This document shows, piece after piece, positions 7,150 to 32,641 of a stretch of 64,000 nucleotides of DNA. The stretch spans positions 2,240,001 through 2,304,000 of the forward strand of contig OZ241329.1 in NCBI GenBank assembly GCA_965199825.1. Direction: 5' to 3'. The notes beneath the pieces were generated by a model. The model ran no database searches. It saw only the letters and a list, made by a program, of their open reading frames with translations, and was not told the DNA's origin. Each line of letters opens with the position of its first letter. Position 1 is the stretch's first letter. The DNA is from Bdellovibrionales bacterium. GTDB lineage: Bacteria > Bdellovibrionota > Bdellovibrionia > Bdellovibrionales > UBA1609. A program made the position numbers and the translations under genes.

Positions 7150-8899
7150 GAACGGCTCCTAAATTTCGCGTCGGGGTCAGCTCGCCTGCGCGAACTAAAT
7201 CTGCGAATAAACCATTTTTATTTTTAAGTTCATCAAAAGTTCCGCTTTCGATAATGCGGCCCTTTTCAAACACCAAGATCTGATCCGCGGTGATCACCGT
7301 AGACAAACGATGGGCAATGATAAAAGTGGTTTTTTGTTGCGCCCGCAAGTTTGCGATGGCGTTTTGAATTCGTTTTTCGGTTTGGTTATCAAGTGCACTT
7401 GTGGCTTCGTCAAAGATCAAGAGCGGAGCATTTTTTAAAATGGCGCGAGCAATCGCCACGCGCTGTTTTTCACCACCCGAAAGGGCCGCTCCGCGCTCAC
7501 CAATAATAAAATTGTAGCCGTTAGGTTTGGCGCTAATAAATTCATGAGCATCGGCCTGGCGTGCGGCATCTTCCACTTCTTGATCAGTTGCCGAGGGTCT
7601 CCCCACACGAATATTTTCGGAAATTGAGCGGTTAAATAATCCAGATTCTTGAAACACGGTTGCCACCAAATGACGAAGGCTCGACATTGTAAAATGCCTA
7701 ACATCTTCACCATCAATTGTGATTGAGCCTGATTGCGGATCAAACAATCTTTGTAGGAGTGCAAGAGTGGTGGTTTTACCCGAACCCGAAGCTCCAACAA
7801 GCGCAATTGTTTGGCCTGCTTTGGCCGCAAAGTTGAGATTTTCAACCCCGTAGTTGCTATTTTTGTAGTGAAACGTGACATCTTTAAATTCGACCTCGCC
7901 TCGCACGGACGAAAAAGTTCGGGCATTTGGCGAATCTTCGGTGACACCGCTTTGATCGAGCAAATTAAAAAAAGTTTGAAGAGCAGGTGCTTGCGTCATC
8001 GAGCGCGAAACAAATCCAGAGATTTGTTCAAGGCGTGAAATCAACAAAAGCGAAAAGCTTGCGAACGCGACGACTTCGCCAACGCTGAGCTCTTTTTTCA
8101 TTACAAGCCATGATCCCAATGCCAAAATCGCAACCATGGTGAGAGTCGCCGAGATGCGGGTAATCACCGAGAGAATTCCCCACCATGTGAGAATGGGATA
8201 TTGCGCACTTAAAACTTGAGCTTCGATATTCTGCAGGGCTTTGACCTCTTCTAAAAATCGGGTGTAACTCTGAACAACGGTGACGTTTCCAATCACATCG
8301 CCCACTCGAGCAAATAAATTTTGGTGATAACGCTCGACTTGCTCTTGCCGGTGGTGAGTTTTTTTAACGATCGTAAAGTTGGCAACCAAGTAAATAATAG
8401 CCAAAAAGAACAGCAACCCTGCCATCCTCAAATCCATTGTGAGGGCCACTGGCACCAAGAACGCGATCCCAATAATCGAGGCCAATTGTTCGCGAATCAG
8501 AGCAAGCCAAAATGTAAAAAGCTGATCGGTGCCCTTTAAAATGGCATGGACCACCCGGCCCGAGCCCTGCTCGGTGTGATAGCTCACGGGGAGGGCAATC
8601 ACCCGCTCAAACACCTGATCAAGCGTATTGAGCCTTTGGCGATGGGCCAAACGGTCGCTCATCACAGCCATAAACACACTCGAGATGATGTTTAAAACCC
8701 CAATAAGGCCCCATAAAACAAGCACCTTCTGGACGCCATTTTGGGTTGAGAGCTTGTCGATCACTTGACCAAACAAGACGGGTTCGAAAATTTGGATCAC
8801 ACCCACACAAACGCAGGAGATCACCAAAAAAATGACGAGAAGCTTTTCGTCGCTCCATAAGATATTGAGCGAACGAACGTATGTGCTGAAATATTTCAT
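7139..8899 (-). CDS. ndvA: ABC exporter resembling the cyclic beta-1,2-glucan exporter NdvA/ChvA
   Basis: EPVLFG, SDRLAHRQRL, TDQLFTFWL, GNVTVVQSY, AQYPILTWW, GASGSGKT, VFQESGLFNRSI and LSGGEKQR match NdvA as I recall it. Confidence 0.75.
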   Translation of the reverse strand: MKYFSTYVRSLNILWSDEKLLVIFLVISCVCVGVIQIFEPVLFGQVIDKLSTQNGVQKVLVLWGLIGVLNIISSVFMAVMSDRLAHRQRLNTLDQVFERVIALPVSYHTEQGSGRVVHAILKGTDQLFTFWLALIREQLASIIGIAFLVPVALTMDLRMAGLLFFLAIIYLVANFTIVKKTHHRQEQVERYHQNLFARVGDVIGNVTVVQSYTRFLEEVKALQNIEAQVLSAQYPILTWWGILSVITRISATLTMVAILALGSWLVMKKELSVGEVVAFASFSLLLISRLEQISGFVSRSMTQAPALQTFFNLLDQSGVTEDSPNARTFSSVRGEVEFKDVTFHYKNSNYGVENLNFAAKAGQTIALVGASGSGKTTTLALLQRLFDPQSGSITIDGEDVRHFTMSSLRHLVATVFQESGLFNRSISENIRVGRPSATDQEVEDAARQADAHEFISAKPNGYNFIIGERGAALSGGEKQRVAIARAILKNAPLLIFDEATSALDNQTEKRIQNAIANLRAQQKTTFIIAHRLSTVITADQILVFEKGRIIESGTFDELKNKNGLFADLVRAGELTPTRNLGAVHAT

Positions 8900-8950: not shown

Positions 8951-8966
8951 TACAAAAAGCTTGCCA
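8951..8966 (-). promoter_or_regulatory. Sigma54-type -24/-12 promoter upstream of the ndvA-like operon
   Basis: TGGCAAGCTTTTTGTA (GG-N10-GT), ~50 nt upstream of the ATG. Confidence 0.5.
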
Positions 8967-9014
8967 ACGTGAAGTAGTTTTTAACAGGTTTACTCTGAGA
9001 TCAAGAGAGGAAAT

Positions 9015-9605
9015 TCAGTTCGTGCTTGCCCCATCAATTTGAGTCAACAAATTTCCGCGAATAGACTCTAACCTAAGGGTCACAAGTTGGGAGTGGATCG
9101 GAGTGCGCGAGAGCACAAACGCTTTGCCATTCGGCTTTAACATGCGCTCGATCGTTTTTGTGAGATCGATCAAAGTCGAGTCGATAAAAAATCGACATCG
9201 ATTTTTAAATAAATTTTTTGAGAGTTTGCCCGTTCCGATTTCAAAGAATGGCGGATTGCAAACAATGAGATCATACTTTTTGCTTTCAAGATCTTTATAA
9301 TTTCCGAGCAAAAAACGAGTGGGTGCTGAAACAAAAGAGGCATTAATTTTAAAATGCGGTTGGTAAATTTCCTGCACTTCAACAAAGTCGGCGATTAGGG
9401 GCATTTCGCGTTTGGCCTGTTGACAGTGATAGAGGAAATCGAGCCCAACAATCCCACAGCCTGAGCACAAGTCGAGCATCGAATAATTTTTCAAATCAAG
9501 GTCTTGATCAAACACTCGTCGCGCCAAAAAAACCGAATCGTGTGAAAAACGATACTCCTCGGGTTGAGAATATTGAAAGGTGTAAAACGGATTGATTGAG
9601 CTCAA
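9015..9605 (-). CDS. SAM-dependent N6-adenine-type methyltransferase (YfiC/TrmN6-like)
   Basis: YRFSHDSVFL, LDLCSGCGIVG, NPPFF. Confidence 0.75.
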   Translation of the reverse strand: MSSINPFYTFQYSQPEEYRFSHDSVFLARRVFDQDLDLKNYSMLDLCSGCGIVGLDFLYHCQQAKREMPLIADFVEVQEIYQPHFKINASFVSAPTRFLLGNYKDLESKKYDLIVCNPPFFEIGTGKLSKNLFKNRCRFFIDSTLIDLTKTIERMLKPNGKAFVLSRTPIHSQLVTLRLESIRGNLLTQIDGASTN

Positions 9606-11437: not shown

Positions 11438-11469
11438 ACTCCCCTGTCAGGGAACAGAGGGGTAGAGTG

Positions 11470-12585
11470 ATGAAAAAGGTAATATTGTTTAGTTTCGTTG
11501 CAGTCTTAACAGCAAGCTCAATGGCATGCTCGAAAGTGAGTTTCTCAAACAGTGCAGCGGCGGGCTCGACAGCAGCAGGTGGATATGATTACACCTACTC
11601 CACAACAGGAGTTGTCAAAACCGATCTGTTATTTGTGGTTGATAACTCGGCATCGATGTCGGTATTGCAACAACAAATGGGAACAAAATTTCCATCGCTC
11701 TTTAGTCGCATCCAAGGATTAGACTATCACATCGCCATCACTAACACCGATGTGACCAGTGCCAACAACCCACAACGTTCCGAGATCGCAGGCTTTCCAT
11801 ATACTCAAGATGGTCAGTTGATTCCATTTCCTGATGGTTCAAAAGTATTGTCGAATGCTTCAAACAATCCTCAATCACAGTTTTTGCAAACAATCATCCG
11901 TCCTGAGACATCACAGTGTCAGCAGTACATTCAGAATTTTTGTCCAAACGGATGTTCGGATCAAGCGACACTTCATTACTATTGTCCTTCAGAAGAAACT
12001 CGAGCCATCGAAGCGTCATTGATGACCGTACAAAGTTCATCAGGTTTTATTCGTGACAGTTCGGTACCTTTAAATATTATCATCCTATCAAACGCGGATG
12101 AGCGTGGGTCGGGTGGAATTTTGTCGGATTATCCAATGGAATCGAATGATCAACCGAGCGCCTTAATCTCCACAGTGTCTCAGGCTTATCCTGGTAAACA
12201 ATTAAAAGTTCACTCAATGATTATCGAGCCCGGTGATGGCGGATGTTACAATGCGCAATACCAAACATTTGGCAAATTTATTTTCGGTTGGTATGGCAAT
12301 GTGTACGCTGCATTGTCGCAATCCACCGGAGGAGTGATGGGGAATGTCTGCGCTCCCGATTACAGCTCGACACTCACAAATATTGCAATCTCGGCCACAG
12401 CCGATAACGGAGATCGCGATTTGCCATGTCAGCCCCAAAACAACCAAGTGACCGTGACTTTATCAAACGGTCAAACACCTGCCTATTATGTGCAGTCAAC
12501 TTCAGCTGGAGCAGCAAGATTGATTTTTACTCAAGCTGTTCCGCCACAAGTCAGCGTGCGAGTTCAGATTCTTAAATGCTCATAA
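11470..12585 (+). CDS. VWA-domain lipoprotein
   Basis: Lipobox SSMAC; DLLFVVDNSASM (DxSxS MIDAS); several Cys; GAGGGG SD. Confidence 0.8.
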   Translation: MKKVILFSFVAVLTASSMACSKVSFSNSAAAGSTAAGGYDYTYSTTGVVKTDLLFVVDNSASMSVLQQQMGTKFPSLFSRIQGLDYHIAITNTDVTSANNPQRSEIAGFPYTQDGQLIPFPDGSKVLSNASNNPQSQFLQTIIRPETSQCQQYIQNFCPNGCSDQATLHYYCPSEETRAIEASLMTVQSSSGFIRDSSVPLNIIILSNADERGSGGILSDYPMESNDQPSALISTVSQAYPGKQLKVHSMIIEPGDGGCYNAQYQTFGKFIFGWYGNVYAALSQSTGGVMGNVCAPDYSSTLTNIAISATADNGDRDLPCQPQNNQVTVTLSNGQTPAYYVQSTSAGAARLIFTQAVPPQVSVRVQILKCS

Positions 12586-23255: not shown

Positions 23256-24079
23256 GTTATCAACTTTTAGACTCTGGTGATTTTGAAAAACTTGAAAAAG
23301 TAGGCCCCTACATTATTCGCCGTCCCGCAGCCCAAGCGGTGTGGCGAAAAACCGAATCGCATTGGCCCACCGCCGATGCGGTTTATCATCGCTACTCTGA
23401 AGGAAAAGGGGAATGGAAGACGGCGTCCTCGGTTCCTCAGTCATGGACGATCGAACTTGGAGATCTCAAATTGATCGCCAAGCTCACAAGTTTTGGGCAT
23501 CTCGGACTTTTTGCAGAACAACAAAAAAATTGGTCGCTGATCCAAAACCGTATTGAACAAACTAAAAATAACCGGGTTCCTCTTATACTTAATTTGTTTG
23601 CTTATACCGGGGGTTCAAGTCTTGTGGCAGGCCGAGCCGGAGCCGAAGTTGTCCATGTGGATGCTTCGAAAGGTTCGGTCGATTGGGCCAAACGCAATTT
23701 TGAGGCAAATGGAATTGAGTCGACCACGCGCTATATGGTTGATGACGTCATGGCTTTTGTTGAACGCGAAGTCAGGCGTGGACGTGTGTACGATGGTATC
23801 ATTCTCGATCCTCCAACCTATGGCCGTGGACCTCAAAAAGAAATTTGGAAGATCGAAGAGCATCTGTTGCCACTTTTGGATATGTGCAAAAAACTTCTTG
23901 AGCAAAGCTCAGGTTTCGTTTTGCTCAGTTGTCATTCGCAAGGCTATACGCCCATTGCCCTCAAACATCTGTTAGCAAGCAGCATTGGCGCCCATACCGT
24001 TGAGGCTGAAGAGATGGTCATTATGGACCGCTTCGGAAAAGCCCTGCCCTCTGGAGCCTCGGCTTTTATTACGTATTAA
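23252..24079 (+). CDS. Class I SAM-dependent methyltransferase (RlmI/RlmK-like)
   Basis: HLGLFAEQ, LNLFAYTG, VDAS, ILDPPTYG. Confidence 0.85.
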   Translation: MSYQLLDSGDFEKLEKVGPYIIRRPAAQAVWRKTESHWPTADAVYHRYSEGKGEWKTASSVPQSWTIELGDLKLIAKLTSFGHLGLFAEQQKNWSLIQNRIEQTKNNRVPLILNLFAYTGGSSLVAGRAGAEVVHVDASKGSVDWAKRNFEANGIESTTRYMVDDVMAFVEREVRRGRVYDGIILDPPTYGRGPQKEIWKIEEHLLPLLDMCKKLLEQSSGFVLLSCHSQGYTPIALKHLLASSIGAHTVEAEEMVIMDRFGKALPSGASAFITY

Positions 24080-29453: not shown

Positions 29454-30074
29454 TTATTTTTCGAGTTGGGCGTATTCGCTTTCCATAAATAAACTGGCGT
29501 TGCCACCTTTGGCGCGGATCCCATCAATAACCGTTTTGGCTTGGGCTGAACGTTTGTTGGCAATCAACATTTTAACATAGCTTTGGGTTACGGTTACTTG
29601 GAGGGCATCGACCTTTGAGGCGAGCACGCGCTCGTAATATTGCGAGGCTTGATCGATCATTCCGAGCTGTCCTAACACCTTGGCATAATCATAAGAAGCA
29701 TCCACACTCAATCCGCCAGAGCGAAAATAACTACCAAAAGAATTTGCCGACTCACGAAATTTTTGACGTTGCATCTGGATTTTACCGAGTTGGGTTAAAG
29801 CCTCAACTTGTGTTGTGGCTTCACTCTGAAGAGCACTCTCGGCACAGTCCAAGTTTTTTCTTTCAAGACATATTTTTGCCAGCTCATCGGCATCATGGGC
29901 ACTGAGCGAGGACATCATGCTTTTTATTTGCAAAGGTATGATAGACAAAAAATGACTGTCCCATTTGATTGCCTGGATAAAACAGAGAACCACCACTAAA
30001 GAAAGTGTCACGCTGACTTTTGAAAATCTCTTAAAAATTTCTCTTTCGGCCTGACGTTCATAATTAACAAACAT
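29454..30074 (-). CDS. Membrane-anchored TPR protein
   Basis: TM segment, then TPR-like repeats (LGKIQM, YAKVLGQLG..ASQYYE); AAGGAG SD. Confidence 0.75.
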   Translation of the reverse strand: MFVNYERQAEREIFKRFSKVSVTLSLVVVLCFIQAIKWDSHFLSIIPLQIKSMMSSLSAHDADELAKICLERKNLDCAESALQSEATTQVEALTQLGKIQMQRQKFRESANSFGSYFRSGGLSVDASYDYAKVLGQLGMIDQASQYYERVLASKVDALQVTVTQSYVKMLIANKRSAQAKTVIDGIRAKGGNASLFMESEYAQLEK

Positions 30075-30109
30075 AACCACTCTCCTTGTGAGTTCTTATT
30101 TAATGATAG

Positions 30110-30194: not shown

Positions 30195-31328
30195 TTGAGA
30201 GCGTCGTTGGTTTTAATCCTATTGTTTTTGGTTCATTGTGCAAGGTCTCCTTTAAAAAATGCGGATCAAGCCCTCAAACTTGTCACCAAAAAGATCACCC
30301 TAAAAGATGATCAAAACTTAGATTTGCTTAAAACCGCAATTGAGCAATCGGCCTTAGCTCTCGAAAAGAACGCGGGTGTGCTCAAATTTGGCTCGATGAC
30401 CATCTCCAAAGAGGTGTATGCGGCCCAGCTTAAAAATCTCTTAAAAGTGCCAAACGATCAGCTTGTCAGCGAAATTCAGAACCATTTTGATTTCTATGAG
30501 GTCTATGGTGAACGAAGGTTGGGCGAGGTCTTTGTGACCTCTTATTTTGAGCCGGTACTTGAGGCCTCAGTCAAACCCTCAAAGCGGCTCTCACAAGCCC
30601 TCTATCAGGCGCCAAAGGATTTGATCTCGATTGATTCCAAATCCTTTCATGAGCGATTCTCTTATTTTGATGATCAATTTAAACTGTCATTTTTAAAAGG
30701 GCGTTTGCTTCAGCCCGAGATGCGGCTTGTGCCCTTTTACAATCGAAAAGAGATCGATCAGGATTTAAATCTCAAAAACCAAAATCTTGAGATTGGCTAT
30801 GTGGATCCGGTGGATGCCTTTACGGTTCAAATTCAAGGGTCGGGCACCTTGATCTTTCAAAATCAAAAAAAAATCCGCATCGGTTACGCCAATCAAAATG
30901 GCTATCCCTATGTGGCCATCGGCAAATTTTTGCTCGACCGCATTCCGCTTGAAAAGATGACTCTGCAAACAATCGAAGCCGCACTTCACGACATGACAAA
31001 CCAAGAGCGCCAAGCGATCATGAACAAAAATCCATCTTATGTTTTTTTTAAAATTATGGATGGTGATCCCAAAACATTTTTTGGAATACCTGCGGTCGAG
31101 GGGCGAACGATCGCAACCGATCAACGCTATTTTCCAAAGGGCGCATTGGCTTTTTTGGATTTTCCGGCAAACGAAATACCATCTCGTCTGGTGATCGATG
31201 CCGACACGGGCGGTGCGATTAAGGGTGCGGGGCGTGTGGATCTTTTTGCAGGTCGCGGTGTTGAATCCAAAAAATTCGCAGGCCAAATTAAAAATCGGGG
31301 GCGACTCTACTATCTTGTCCCAAAATAA
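30195..31328 (+). CDS. mltA: Lytic murein transglycosylase A
   Basis: TSYFEP, QIQGSG, NGYPY, NPSYVFF, DTGGAIKGAGRVDLF. Confidence 0.93.
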   Translation: MRASLVLILLFLVHCARSPLKNADQALKLVTKKITLKDDQNLDLLKTAIEQSALALEKNAGVLKFGSMTISKEVYAAQLKNLLKVPNDQLVSEIQNHFDFYEVYGERRLGEVFVTSYFEPVLEASVKPSKRLSQALYQAPKDLISIDSKSFHERFSYFDDQFKLSFLKGRLLQPEMRLVPFYNRKEIDQDLNLKNQNLEIGYVDPVDAFTVQIQGSGTLIFQNQKKIRIGYANQNGYPYVAIGKFLLDRIPLEKMTLQTIEAALHDMTNQERQAIMNKNPSYVFFKIMDGDPKTFFGIPAVEGRTIATDQRYFPKGALAFLDFPANEIPSRLVIDADTGGAIKGAGRVDLFAGRGVESKKFAGQIKNRGRLYYLVPK

Positions 31329-31412
31329 AAGGGACAGCTCAGTCCTTATCCATAAAGACTGAGCTGCGGGGGTAGAGTGGGAGAGGGGGTAGATGCCGTC
31401 CATGACATCTGC
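31325..31412 (-). ncRNA. Candidate sigma54-dependent small RNA with two GGA-loop hairpins
   Basis: Promoter at 31423-31438; hairpin 1 at 31391-31410; C-rich linker; hairpin 2 / terminator at 31335-31366 followed by UCCCUUUUAUUUU. Confidence 0.6.
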
Positions 31413-31422
31413 TAACCTATAG

Positions 31423-31438
31423 AGCAAGCGATGTGCCT
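31423..31438 (-). promoter_or_regulatory. Sigma54 promoter for the candidate sRNA
   Basis: AGGCACATCGCTTGCT (GGCAC-N5-TTGC). Confidence 0.7.
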
Positions 31439-31642
31439 CAATGTTCGTTGAAAGTTTCAAAGACAATTTTTGTCGCTCAGCTGTACGGATTTCATTCAAT
31501 AAGCAACTGCGTGCTCAAGAATATTTGATCGCCAATTCCAAATGAAAAAATTTTGTTTCGAGGCTTGGGCGTTGGATTAAAAAAAATCCGATTCTGCCGC
31601 CCTTTGTCGGCATTTGACGCAAAGATCGTCACTCTCTAGGGT

Positions 31643-32641
31643 ATGCCGATGCAAACAGTTTTAACCGGGGTCAAACCCACAGGTCAGCCCCATATCGGAA
31701 ATTACTTAGGTGCGATCAAACCCGCCCTGTCATTTCAAAGCACCACACATACTTTTTTGTTTATTGCCGACTACCACTCACTCACCGCTGCAACCCAACC
31801 CAAGGAGCTCAATGCTTGGGTGTATGAGTTGGCGGCCACGTGGATTGCTTGTGGTCTTGATCCCGAGCAAACGGTGTTTTATCGCCAAAGCGATATCCCT
31901 GAAAATTTTGAGCTCTATTGGGTTTTAAGTTGCCTTTCATCTAAGGGCTTAATGAACCGCGCCCACGCATACAAAGCCAAGGTCCAAGAAAATGTTGAGG
32001 CTGCTCGCGAAGATCAAGATCACGGTGTAAACATGGGTTTGTTTACTTATCCTTTGTTGATGAGTTCTGATATTTTGTTATTTGATGCCGACACTGTTCC
32101 GACGGGTGAGGATCAACTCCAGCATATCGAGATCGCCCGCGATTTGGCTCAGCGAATGAATCATCACTATGGGCCCATACTCAAGGTTCCAAGTCCTCAA
32201 ATCCGCACCCAAATGAAAACGGTGCTTGGGCTTGATGGGCGAAAGATGAGCAAATCTTATAACAATACGATTCCACTGTTTTCAGAAGAAAAAAAGCTGC
32301 GCTCTCTCATTATGAAAATTAAAACCGATTCGACCCCACCCGAAGCTCCAAAGGAAACCAAAGGATCTTTGTTATTTGATTGGTATCAGCACTGGGCAAC
32401 CGCTCAAGAGATTGAAGCCCTTTCTGAACGCTATGCCAAGGGCATTGCGTGGGGCCATGTGAAAGAAGAACTGTTTGAAGTCATCAACCGCGAGATCAAA
32501 CCTTTAAGAGAAGTTTATCAATCGGTGATTGGTGATAAAGACAAAATCGATCAAATTTTAAAGCGGGGAGCCGATAAAGCGCGCGAGGTGGCTAAACAAA
32601 CTTTGTTAAGAGTGCGCAAAGCCACCGGCATCGAGCGCTAG
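31643..32641 (+). CDS. trpS: Tryptophanyl-tRNA synthetase
   Basis: PTGQPHIGNYLGA, ADYH, YPLLM..DIL, GEDQ, KMSKS. Confidence 0.97.
   Translation: MPMQTVLTGVKPTGQPHIGNYLGAIKPALSFQSTTHTFLFIADYHSLTAATQPKELNAWVYELAATWIACGLDPEQTVFYRQSDIPENFELYWVLSCLSSKGLMNRAHAYKAKVQENVEAAREDQDHGVNMGLFTYPLLMSSDILLFDADTVPTGEDQLQHIEIARDLAQRMNHHYGPILKVPSPQIRTQMKTVLGLDGRKMSKSYNNTIPLFSEEKKLRSLIMKIKTDSTPPEAPKETKGSLLFDWYQHWATAQEIEALSERYAKGIAWGHVKEELFEVINREIKPLREVYQSVIGDKDKIDQILKRGADKAREVAKQTLLRVRKATGIER

Follow-up and report, generated by a model that had tools for sequence, protein, structure and literature searches.

The stretch of DNA analysed here (the window) covers 64,000 nucleotides (nt) of a Bdellovibrionales genome and corresponds to positions 2,240,001-2,304,000 of contig OZ241329.1. 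All coordinates are window positions unless the contigs C1 or C3 of the source genome (G000) are named, and other G numbers denote genomes of relatives. The gap between the genes mltA and trpS was found to be filled by an element on the minus strand, which is predicted to be a gene of a small RNA (sRNA) and which consists of a sigma54-type promoter, two hairpins with GGA loops of the CsrA-binding type, a C-rich linker between them and a U-rich tail (Table 1). An earlier prediction, made from the sequence alone and called the original prediction below, had proposed a new sigma54-dependent sRNA that acts both as a CsrA ligand and by base pairing. The promoter GGCAC-N5-TTGC, both hairpins, the linker and the loops were all present on the minus strand as described there. 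The observation was accurate and went beyond chance, while its interpretation was partly supported.

Table 1. Predicted parts of the element and the genes around it, in window positions (SD, Shine-Dalgarno; bp, base pairs)
Feature	Position	Strand	Basis or remark
Predicted small RNA, ~88-91 nt	31322..31412	-	Sequence, fold and terminator call
Sigma54-type -24/-12 promoter	31420..31439	-	GG at 31437-31436, TTGC at 31427-31424; +1 predicted near 31412
Hairpin 1, stem of 7 bp that includes one G-U pair, AUGGAC as hexaloop with a closing C-G; site of CsrA type	31391..31410	-	
C-rich single-stranded linker, 23 nt, anti-SD-like	31368..31390	-	Unpaired in ensemble
Hairpin 2, stem of 13-14 bp that includes G-U, AUGGAU in the loop; second site of CsrA type, also terminator stem	31334..31367	-	
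CCC and U-rich tail (U-tract 31330-31322)	31322..31333	-	Shares positions with the stop codon of mltA (opposite strand)
20-codon open reading frame, AUG at +5 inside stem 1	31346..31408	-	Rival reading; no Pfam match
mltA (MltA and 3D domains)	30195..31328	+	Convergent with the element
trpS-type class I tRNA synthetase gene	31643..32641	+	Divergent from the element; synteny marker
TPR-like protein gene	29454..30080	-	Next same-strand gene after the element; own sigma54 motif of 20.5 bits

The promoter motif GGCAC-N5-TTGC (31437-31424, minus strand) was scored with two sigma54 matrices. The matrix trained on the source genome itself gave 17.0 bits, with 53 equally good sites, in a test that was partly circular. 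The independent matrix, composed of 52 promoters that all came from other genomes, gave 18.2 bits; 13 sites were equally good genome-wide, 10 of the 13 lay outside gene bodies, and 0-2 sites as good as the promoter of the element were recorded in five shuffles. Therefore, the motif was among the best of the genome and the sigma54-type promoter of the original prediction was supported, with the caveat that an A precedes the GG, where T is usual. The transcription start was placed by the usual 12-nt spacing of sigma54 promoters. Both rpoN and csrA, which the original prediction had presupposed, were present in the source genome, together with 11 strong matches to sigma54 activators. Hence, the marks of a sigma54-dependent gene were found, namely a -24/-12 motif with GG and GC correctly spaced and a genome that has rpoN as well as enhancer-binding proteins. 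The element is very probably a sigma54 sRNA gene.

The fold stability of the element corresponded to a z of -3.9, and none of 200 shuffles was as stable. Each stem contains a G-U pair, which would be a C-A mismatch if read on the plus strand, and the U-tract downstream of hairpin 2 is confined to the minus strand. The terminator was called on the minus strand only; because 0.9 such sites were expected by chance in the region, this call was weak on its own. Two runs of a single study gave contigs in which the sequence of the element was identical; one of the two was possibly the source of the assembly.

In the source genome csrA lies in a flgK-flgL-csrA-fliW run and is thus accompanied by fliW, five flagellins were present, and hfq was not found in this genome, which is 100% complete. 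Hairpins with an ANGGAN hexaloop were sought genome-wide in pairs whose stems both reach 6 bp, and the element proved to be the only such pair. No pair was obtained at 7 bp in 20 shuffled genomes, and control motifs yielded none. A second definition of the CsrA site was derived from the multi-GGA RNA of the lineage itself, which lies between flgI and flgJ. Four intergenic clusters of at least two CsrA-type hairpins were recorded in the source genome, namely the leader of a sigma54-activator gene, a flagellin leader, the flgI-flgJ RNA and the element, against a mean of 0.2 (stems of at least 5) or 0.005 (stems of at least 6) in 200 shuffles of the intergenic DNA. Under the stricter limit, the element was the one intergenic pair of the genome in which both stems were long enough.

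The loop contexts CAUGGACG and UAUGGAU of the element recur in the conserved flgI-flgJ RNA family, and hairpin 1 closely resembles the flagellin-leader hairpin, so that the CsrA-type loops of the original prediction were matched by those of two RNAs of the same lineage. FliW-type CsrA classically acts on flagellin leaders (PMC7652899). The two GGA sites of the element are 50 nt apart, which fits bridging by a single dimer, because one CsrA dimer bridges sites 10-63 nt apart (PMC7652899). Of the hallmarks of CsrB/Rsm sponges, GGA in hairpin loops was present at two sites and the many repeated sites were absent.

Two further observations concern CsrA-type hairpins elsewhere in the genome. The leader of a sigma54 response-regulator/activator gene at C1:573950-574003 (plus strand) bears two of them, and its sequence suggests CsrA control of a sigma54 activator. 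The flagellin leaders (C1:587786, the 594391 region and others) carry GGA hexaloop hairpins before the SD sequence, the classical layout of a CsrA target.

The original prediction assigned to the linker a role in pairing with G-rich ribosome-binding sites. The linker was unpaired in the structural ensemble and complementary to such sites, as had been claimed; it was also one of 39 stretches genome-wide with at least 16 C in 24 nt. However, the specific targets were weak, at or slightly above the level of shuffles. By inspection, the top matches looked mostly like genes of unassigned function for exported or lipoprotein-type products, plus flgF. The leading G-rich candidates among the ribosome-binding sites were those at C1:1812770, 1522093 and 2130982, at window 11470, of the TPR gene (30074) and of flgF. 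An 11-bp perfect complement of the linker was found in the ribosome-binding site at 11440-11470 (plus strand) of a gene for a 371-residue protein without a Pfam match. It was the longest match among 2534 start regions and was reached by 10% of 60 shuffles. The gene starts in all genome-wide scans came from a simple in-house gene caller.

The genes at 8899, 11470 and 28493 had been named as sigma54-type genes preceded by GAGGG stretches. Those stretches were present, but the sigma54 type was not supported (7.4, 3.9 and 6.7 bits, respectively), and the claim that sigma54 genes are the preferred targets of the linker was rejected (p = 0.81). The pairing of the linker with the G-tracts of the flgI-flgJ RNA was rejected as well. 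Its raw duplex energy was -32.8, but the tracts are locked in the stems of that RNA, and the net energy of -3.9 kcal/mol was worse than that of 92% of the linker shuffles.

A scan of 59 mltA/trpS neighbourhoods gave one lead, in genome G132, from which copies were found elsewhere. The resulting family of trpS/TPR-linked RNAs comprised 10 full copies and one partial copy, 116-142 nt long, in the genera g34, g16 and g14 (alignment A6). Their layout begins with a GG-N8-TTGCT promoter and a 5' hairpin that varies between copies; an AACC-type spacer leads to a second hairpin, the GGA loop of which is invariant, and a CCCUCC-type linker then connects to a 12-bp terminator and a U-rich tail. The promoter, the GGA loop and the terminator were kept in all 10 full copies. 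Changes on both sides were recorded for 8 of 18 pairs, a kind of count that is inflated by relatedness; none of 500 shuffles scored as high and slid controls were far lower. In the stem of the GGA hairpin both sides changed at 5 of 6 pairs, again within related genomes.

All nine copies with trpS on the contig were divergent from it and lay 1.0-5.3 kb upstream; the upstream location was a search criterion for the family and the orientation was not. The orthologue of the TPR gene (window 29454-30080) was the next same-strand gene in 5 of the 11 genomes. This neighbour had not been used to find the family, and one of the five genomes (G086) had not been selected via trpS. The duplex energies between the linkers and the ribosome-binding sites of the neighbouring TPR genes were modest, from -12 to -17 in the four cases with a usable start. 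A second GGA loop occurred in about half of these RNAs and never in the terminator loop. As only one GGA loop was invariant, two sites per dimer was not a conserved rule.

The element agrees with this family in position, as it is oriented divergently to trpS and precedes the TPR gene, and in the order of its parts, from the promoter and the GGA hairpin over the C-rich linker to a long terminator stem with its U-tract. Hairpin 1 is the positional equivalent of the invariant GGA hairpin, and the 5' hairpin and the AACC-type spacer are absent from the element. A descriptor of this order of parts, which was composed with prior knowledge of the element, found only the element in the source genome; eight shuffles gave no match, and 1.09 Mb of other loci yielded no additional one. 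Since the sequence profiles failed to recognise the element, the case for orthology is one of position and design. It was concluded from these two that the element is probably a remodelled and shortened orthologue of the trpS/TPR-linked RNAs, in which the 5' hairpin would have been lost, the linker lengthened and a second GGA gained in the terminator loop. The covariation and GGA conservation expected by the original prediction were seen in the syntenic family, whereas the element itself was without a sequence-level homologue.

Other RNAs of the lineage were also delimited. The flgI-flgJ RNA (C1:1564590-1564796, plus strand) is about 205 nt long and has five GGA hairpins, an enclosing stem, a U-tail and no Rfam match. 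It was present in 117 of 151 Bdellovibrionales genomes and was delimited in 27 of 30 loci of the taxonomic family; in the sampled genera of that family that had no such RNA (g5, g30, g23, g20 and g3), flgI was not found either. Compared by eye, it matches the published APsRNA1 of Bdellovibrio bacteriovorus in position and motif order. APsRNA1 is expressed, is 207 nt long, ends 61 nt before flgJ and is 16-fold higher in the attack phase of this cultured model predator (PMC3627812). CsrA is not mentioned in that paper (0 occurrences; PMC3627812). By its sequence, the flgI-flgJ RNA resembles a sponge of the CsrB type, in genomes that also have FliW, and it is arguably more important than the element itself. 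It makes RNA ligands of CsrA plausible in this lineage; it also suggests that sponging is already covered, which favours a pairing role for the element.

Upstream of amidase-rph, a sigma54-driven RNA of about 62 nt without a Rfam match was found (C1:1893551-1893636, minus strand). It is composed of a 5' C-tract, a 10-bp stem with an anti-SD-like C-rich loop and a U-tail, is terminator-ended and was present in 106 of 151 genomes of the order. Its stem changes between families, as judged by eye, and little covariation was recorded within the family alignment. This conserved sigma54-driven C-rich sRNA indicates that RNAs of this type are used in the order. A third sigma54-type RNA occurs with near-identical design in two families, at the loci L251 (G133:C67:~23645-23731) and L254 (G129:C35:~8960-9055). 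It has two hairpins with C-rich loops and a U-tail, shows a weak, sub-threshold likeness to ar14 and was not found in the source genome.

The source genome has a large sigma54 regulon with many leaderless transcripts. It also contains a dispersed repeat of at least six copies (window 15187; C1 2323880, 2350985, 2083764, 1921328 and 1290451), each with a strong sigma54 motif at its start followed by a similar sequence of about 120 nt with an inverted repeat. On contig C3 (14.5 kb), a C-rich segment repeats every ~3.4 kb (1451, 4837, 8305 and 11764), which suggests a tandemly repeated or mis-binned contig. Across the taxonomic family mltA and trpS stay linked, with a gap of 27 nt to several kb and varied inserted genes (sodC and others), and this junction is an insertion hotspot. 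A 244-codon open reading frame antisense over mltA had no Pfam match.

The search for a known family, suggested by the original prediction, returned no Rfam match at the gathering threshold in the window, and E-value scans that covered the locus of the element and four loci of the syntenic family turned up nothing beyond chance matches below threshold. A GTDB pattern scan gave 74 loci, all of them members of the amidase-rph family or chance matches. Metagenome scans gave 0 and 51 loci, none of which had the fold, and a viral scan gave two loci, neither resembling the element. A related-locus search with MltA found nothing; the source genome was the sole genome of its genus among those compared. 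The models of the other RNAs did not recover the element: it was not among the 27 window matches of the amidase-rph model R1 at E <= 10 with filters off, and the flgI-flgJ model R3 gave 9.1 bits in a wrong register, while the corresponding hidden Markov model (nhmmer) did not list it. In G024, a terminator hairpin of similar appearance (E 0.002 per genome) was rejected, as it was without promoter, GGA and linker. One metagenome locus, L376 (contig Ga0182022_1245936), has several hairpins with GGA that follow a weak sigma54-like motif and, by sequence, resembles an Rsm-type sRNA of another organism.

Based on these data, it was concluded that the element is probably a functional new sRNA. A small regulatory RNA is likely because a sigma54-type promoter, two CsrA-like hairpin loops and a C-rich strand are combined in a non-coding element. 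We proposed that it is a sigma54-dependent sRNA of about 90 nt, in which the GGA loops bind CsrA and the C-rich linker damps translation from G-rich ribosome-binding sites, and we give this full reading an even chance of being correct. The promoter would be fired by an enhancer-binding activator, and an RNA of about 90 nt would be released at the U-tract. CsrA would then bind one or both loops and stabilise or deliver the RNA, the C-rich strand of which would occlude G-rich ribosome-binding sites and repress translation. CsrA would likely stand in for the Hfq chaperone, the gene of which was not found in the source genome.

Several results weigh against this proposal. [quoted passage not shown] Three C separate the stem of hairpin 2 from the U-tract, so termination may be imperfect. 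The duplex energies of the linker with start regions were no better than those of 150 shuffles; in an accessibility-aware prediction the top three matches beat 24 of 25 shuffles and the best match alone 20 of 25. The family sequence profile gave 8.3 bits on the element (E 2.5) and covered the promoter and the first hairpin only, the core profile did not place the element in its top 10, and a joint alignment of the element with the family broke several pairs. The family itself was present in only 8 of the 38 genomes sampled for trpS-upstream DNA and was not found in 20 further regions, including those upstream of several other TPR orthologues. Blastn searches with the element in its own genome and in 61 genomes gave nothing credible, the best match in the latter being the mltA end. 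No credible homologue was obtained by a pattern search of 109 family and 384 order genomes, the spacing limits of which excluded the longer syntenic RNAs, or by a single-sequence covariance model (R2) run over 109 family and 151 order genomes and 62 loci.

The alternative that survives best, though it is unlikely, is a minimal CsrA sponge, in which the sigma54-made RNA titrates one CsrA dimer via its two loops and the linker is a mere spacer. The distance between the two sites, the clustering of the element with CsrA ligands of known type and the lack of a linker target clearly above shuffles all suit it. However, a candidate sponge with multiple sites is already present in the source genome, in the flgI-flgJ gap, and the syntenic family keeps one invariant GGA loop, yet conserves a CCCUCC-type linker sequence, which is more than a spacer needs.

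It is quite unlikely that the element acts in cis, as a convergent terminator or insulator, as an antisense RNA uncoupling mltA from trpS, or as a chance terminator with a stray promoter. Such a role would account for an element that fills the mltA-trpS gap (only 27-91 nt in several relatives), whose tail overlaps the mltA stop codon and which has no sequence-level homologue, but the promoter is among the 13 best of the genome and the syntenic RNAs are located between other genes, not behind mltA. The possibility that hairpin 2 is a mere mltA terminator, an objection raised already with the original prediction, is unlikely because the plus strand has no U-tract; it also has the C-A mismatches.

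A plain anti-SD pairing sRNA, the GGA loops of which are incidental or merely stabilising, was judged distinctly improbable. The other sigma54 C-rich sRNA of the order manages without a GGA loop, and the loops of the element deviate from the SELEX consensus; nevertheless, paired GGA hairpins are rare, and 10 of 10 syntenic RNAs keep the GGA loop unchanged, with covariation at 5 of 6 pairs of its stem.

Finally, the reading of the element as a near-leaderless mRNA that encodes a peptide of 20 residues, and might be dual-function, is very improbable: leaderless sigma54 transcripts are common here (the gene ATG is 12-14 nt behind TTGC at 28 of 168 strong sigma54 sites) and the ATG of the element, 15 nt behind TTGC, opens 20 codons, but this AUG is hidden within stem 1 and its spacing is marginal in the distribution (one gene at 15 nt), the frame has no Pfam match, and the syntenic RNAs, by inspection, share no common start or frame length. 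Thus, of the claim that no credible coding sequence follows the promoter, the part that no gene follows stood, but the AUG at +5 does open a short frame.

McaS and GadY are Hfq-associated enterobacterial RNAs. Like the element, these Escherichia coli RNAs are short sRNAs that combine at least two GGA motifs with a base-pairing region (PMC7652899), whereas the element has a sigma54 promoter, no Rfam match and a host with FliW-type CsrA in which hfq was not found. In Bacillus subtilis, a FliW-containing bacterium, CsrA promotes the pairing of SR1 with ahrC mRNA (PMC6546359). SR1 also carries a small open reading frame, as does the element; however, no relation in sequence or family was found between the two, the promoter and the lineage are different, and matchmaking by CsrA is hypothetical for the element. 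CsrB/CsrC and RsmY/RsmZ likewise present GGA in hairpin loops, but they have 13-22 sites (PMC6546359) against two in the element, for which Rfam gave no match.

The Pxr RNA of Myxococcales is an sRNA with a sigma54 promoter and stem-loops, from a former deltaproteobacterium that lacks Hfq (PMC5568312, PMC5684412). The element differs from it in having no Rfam match and in not being adjacent to its activator gene, and CsrA loops in Pxr are not reported in the available portions of these two sources (PMC5568312, PMC5684412). In Campylobacter jejuni, a CsrA-FliW organism, CjNC1/CjNC4 (FlmR) and FlmE are Hfq-independent and pair over the ribosome-binding site (PMC4626219), and FlmE depends on RpoN (PMC11187230). 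CjNC1/4 are driven by sigma28 and target sigma54 genes, whereas sigma54 genes were not the preferred targets of the element. APsRNA1 shares the bacterial order and the loop types with the element, but this flgI-flgJ RNA has five GGA hairpins, a G-rich enclosing stem and, over the 300 nt that precede it, no sigma54 motif. The element is akin in concept to McaS/GadY or SR1 and in setting to Pxr or the Campylobacter RNAs, and by the tests run it is a member of none of them.

A literature search that covered few subscription journals found no paper in which these RNAs are described as CsrA ligands, and no description of CsrA control by RNA in this lineage was found in the literature searched. The regulation of CsrA in Bdellovibrio is little known, although csrA is implicated in predation and the Bdellovibrio CsrA was active in a heterologous assay (PMC13443453). 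CsrB-type RNAs have been predicted for Geobacter, which is also a FliW organism (PMC11934962). According to a 2020 review, the joint action of FliW and sRNAs on CsrA remained undetermined in any species (PMC7652899).

We tentatively suggest, as a possible but rather doubtful extension, that Bdellovibrionales have a hitherto undescribed, Hfq-free RNA layer around FliW-type CsrA, made up of a CsrB-like sponge with many GGA sites within the flagellar operon (APsRNA1) and of sigma54-driven hybrid sRNAs like the element, in which a CsrA-binding hairpin would lie beside an anti-SD strand and CsrA itself would deliver the sRNA to the ribosome-binding site. The element, the syntenic family and the flgI-flgJ RNA are concrete candidate RNA ligands with which the question of CsrA, FliW and RNA may be approached. 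The design of a CsrA site followed by an anti-SD strand would extend the idea of CsrA as a matchmaker beyond SR1. If true, the proposed layer would mean that control of CsrA by a protein (FliW) and by RNA is joined in one cell and tied to the switch of these predators between attack and growth.

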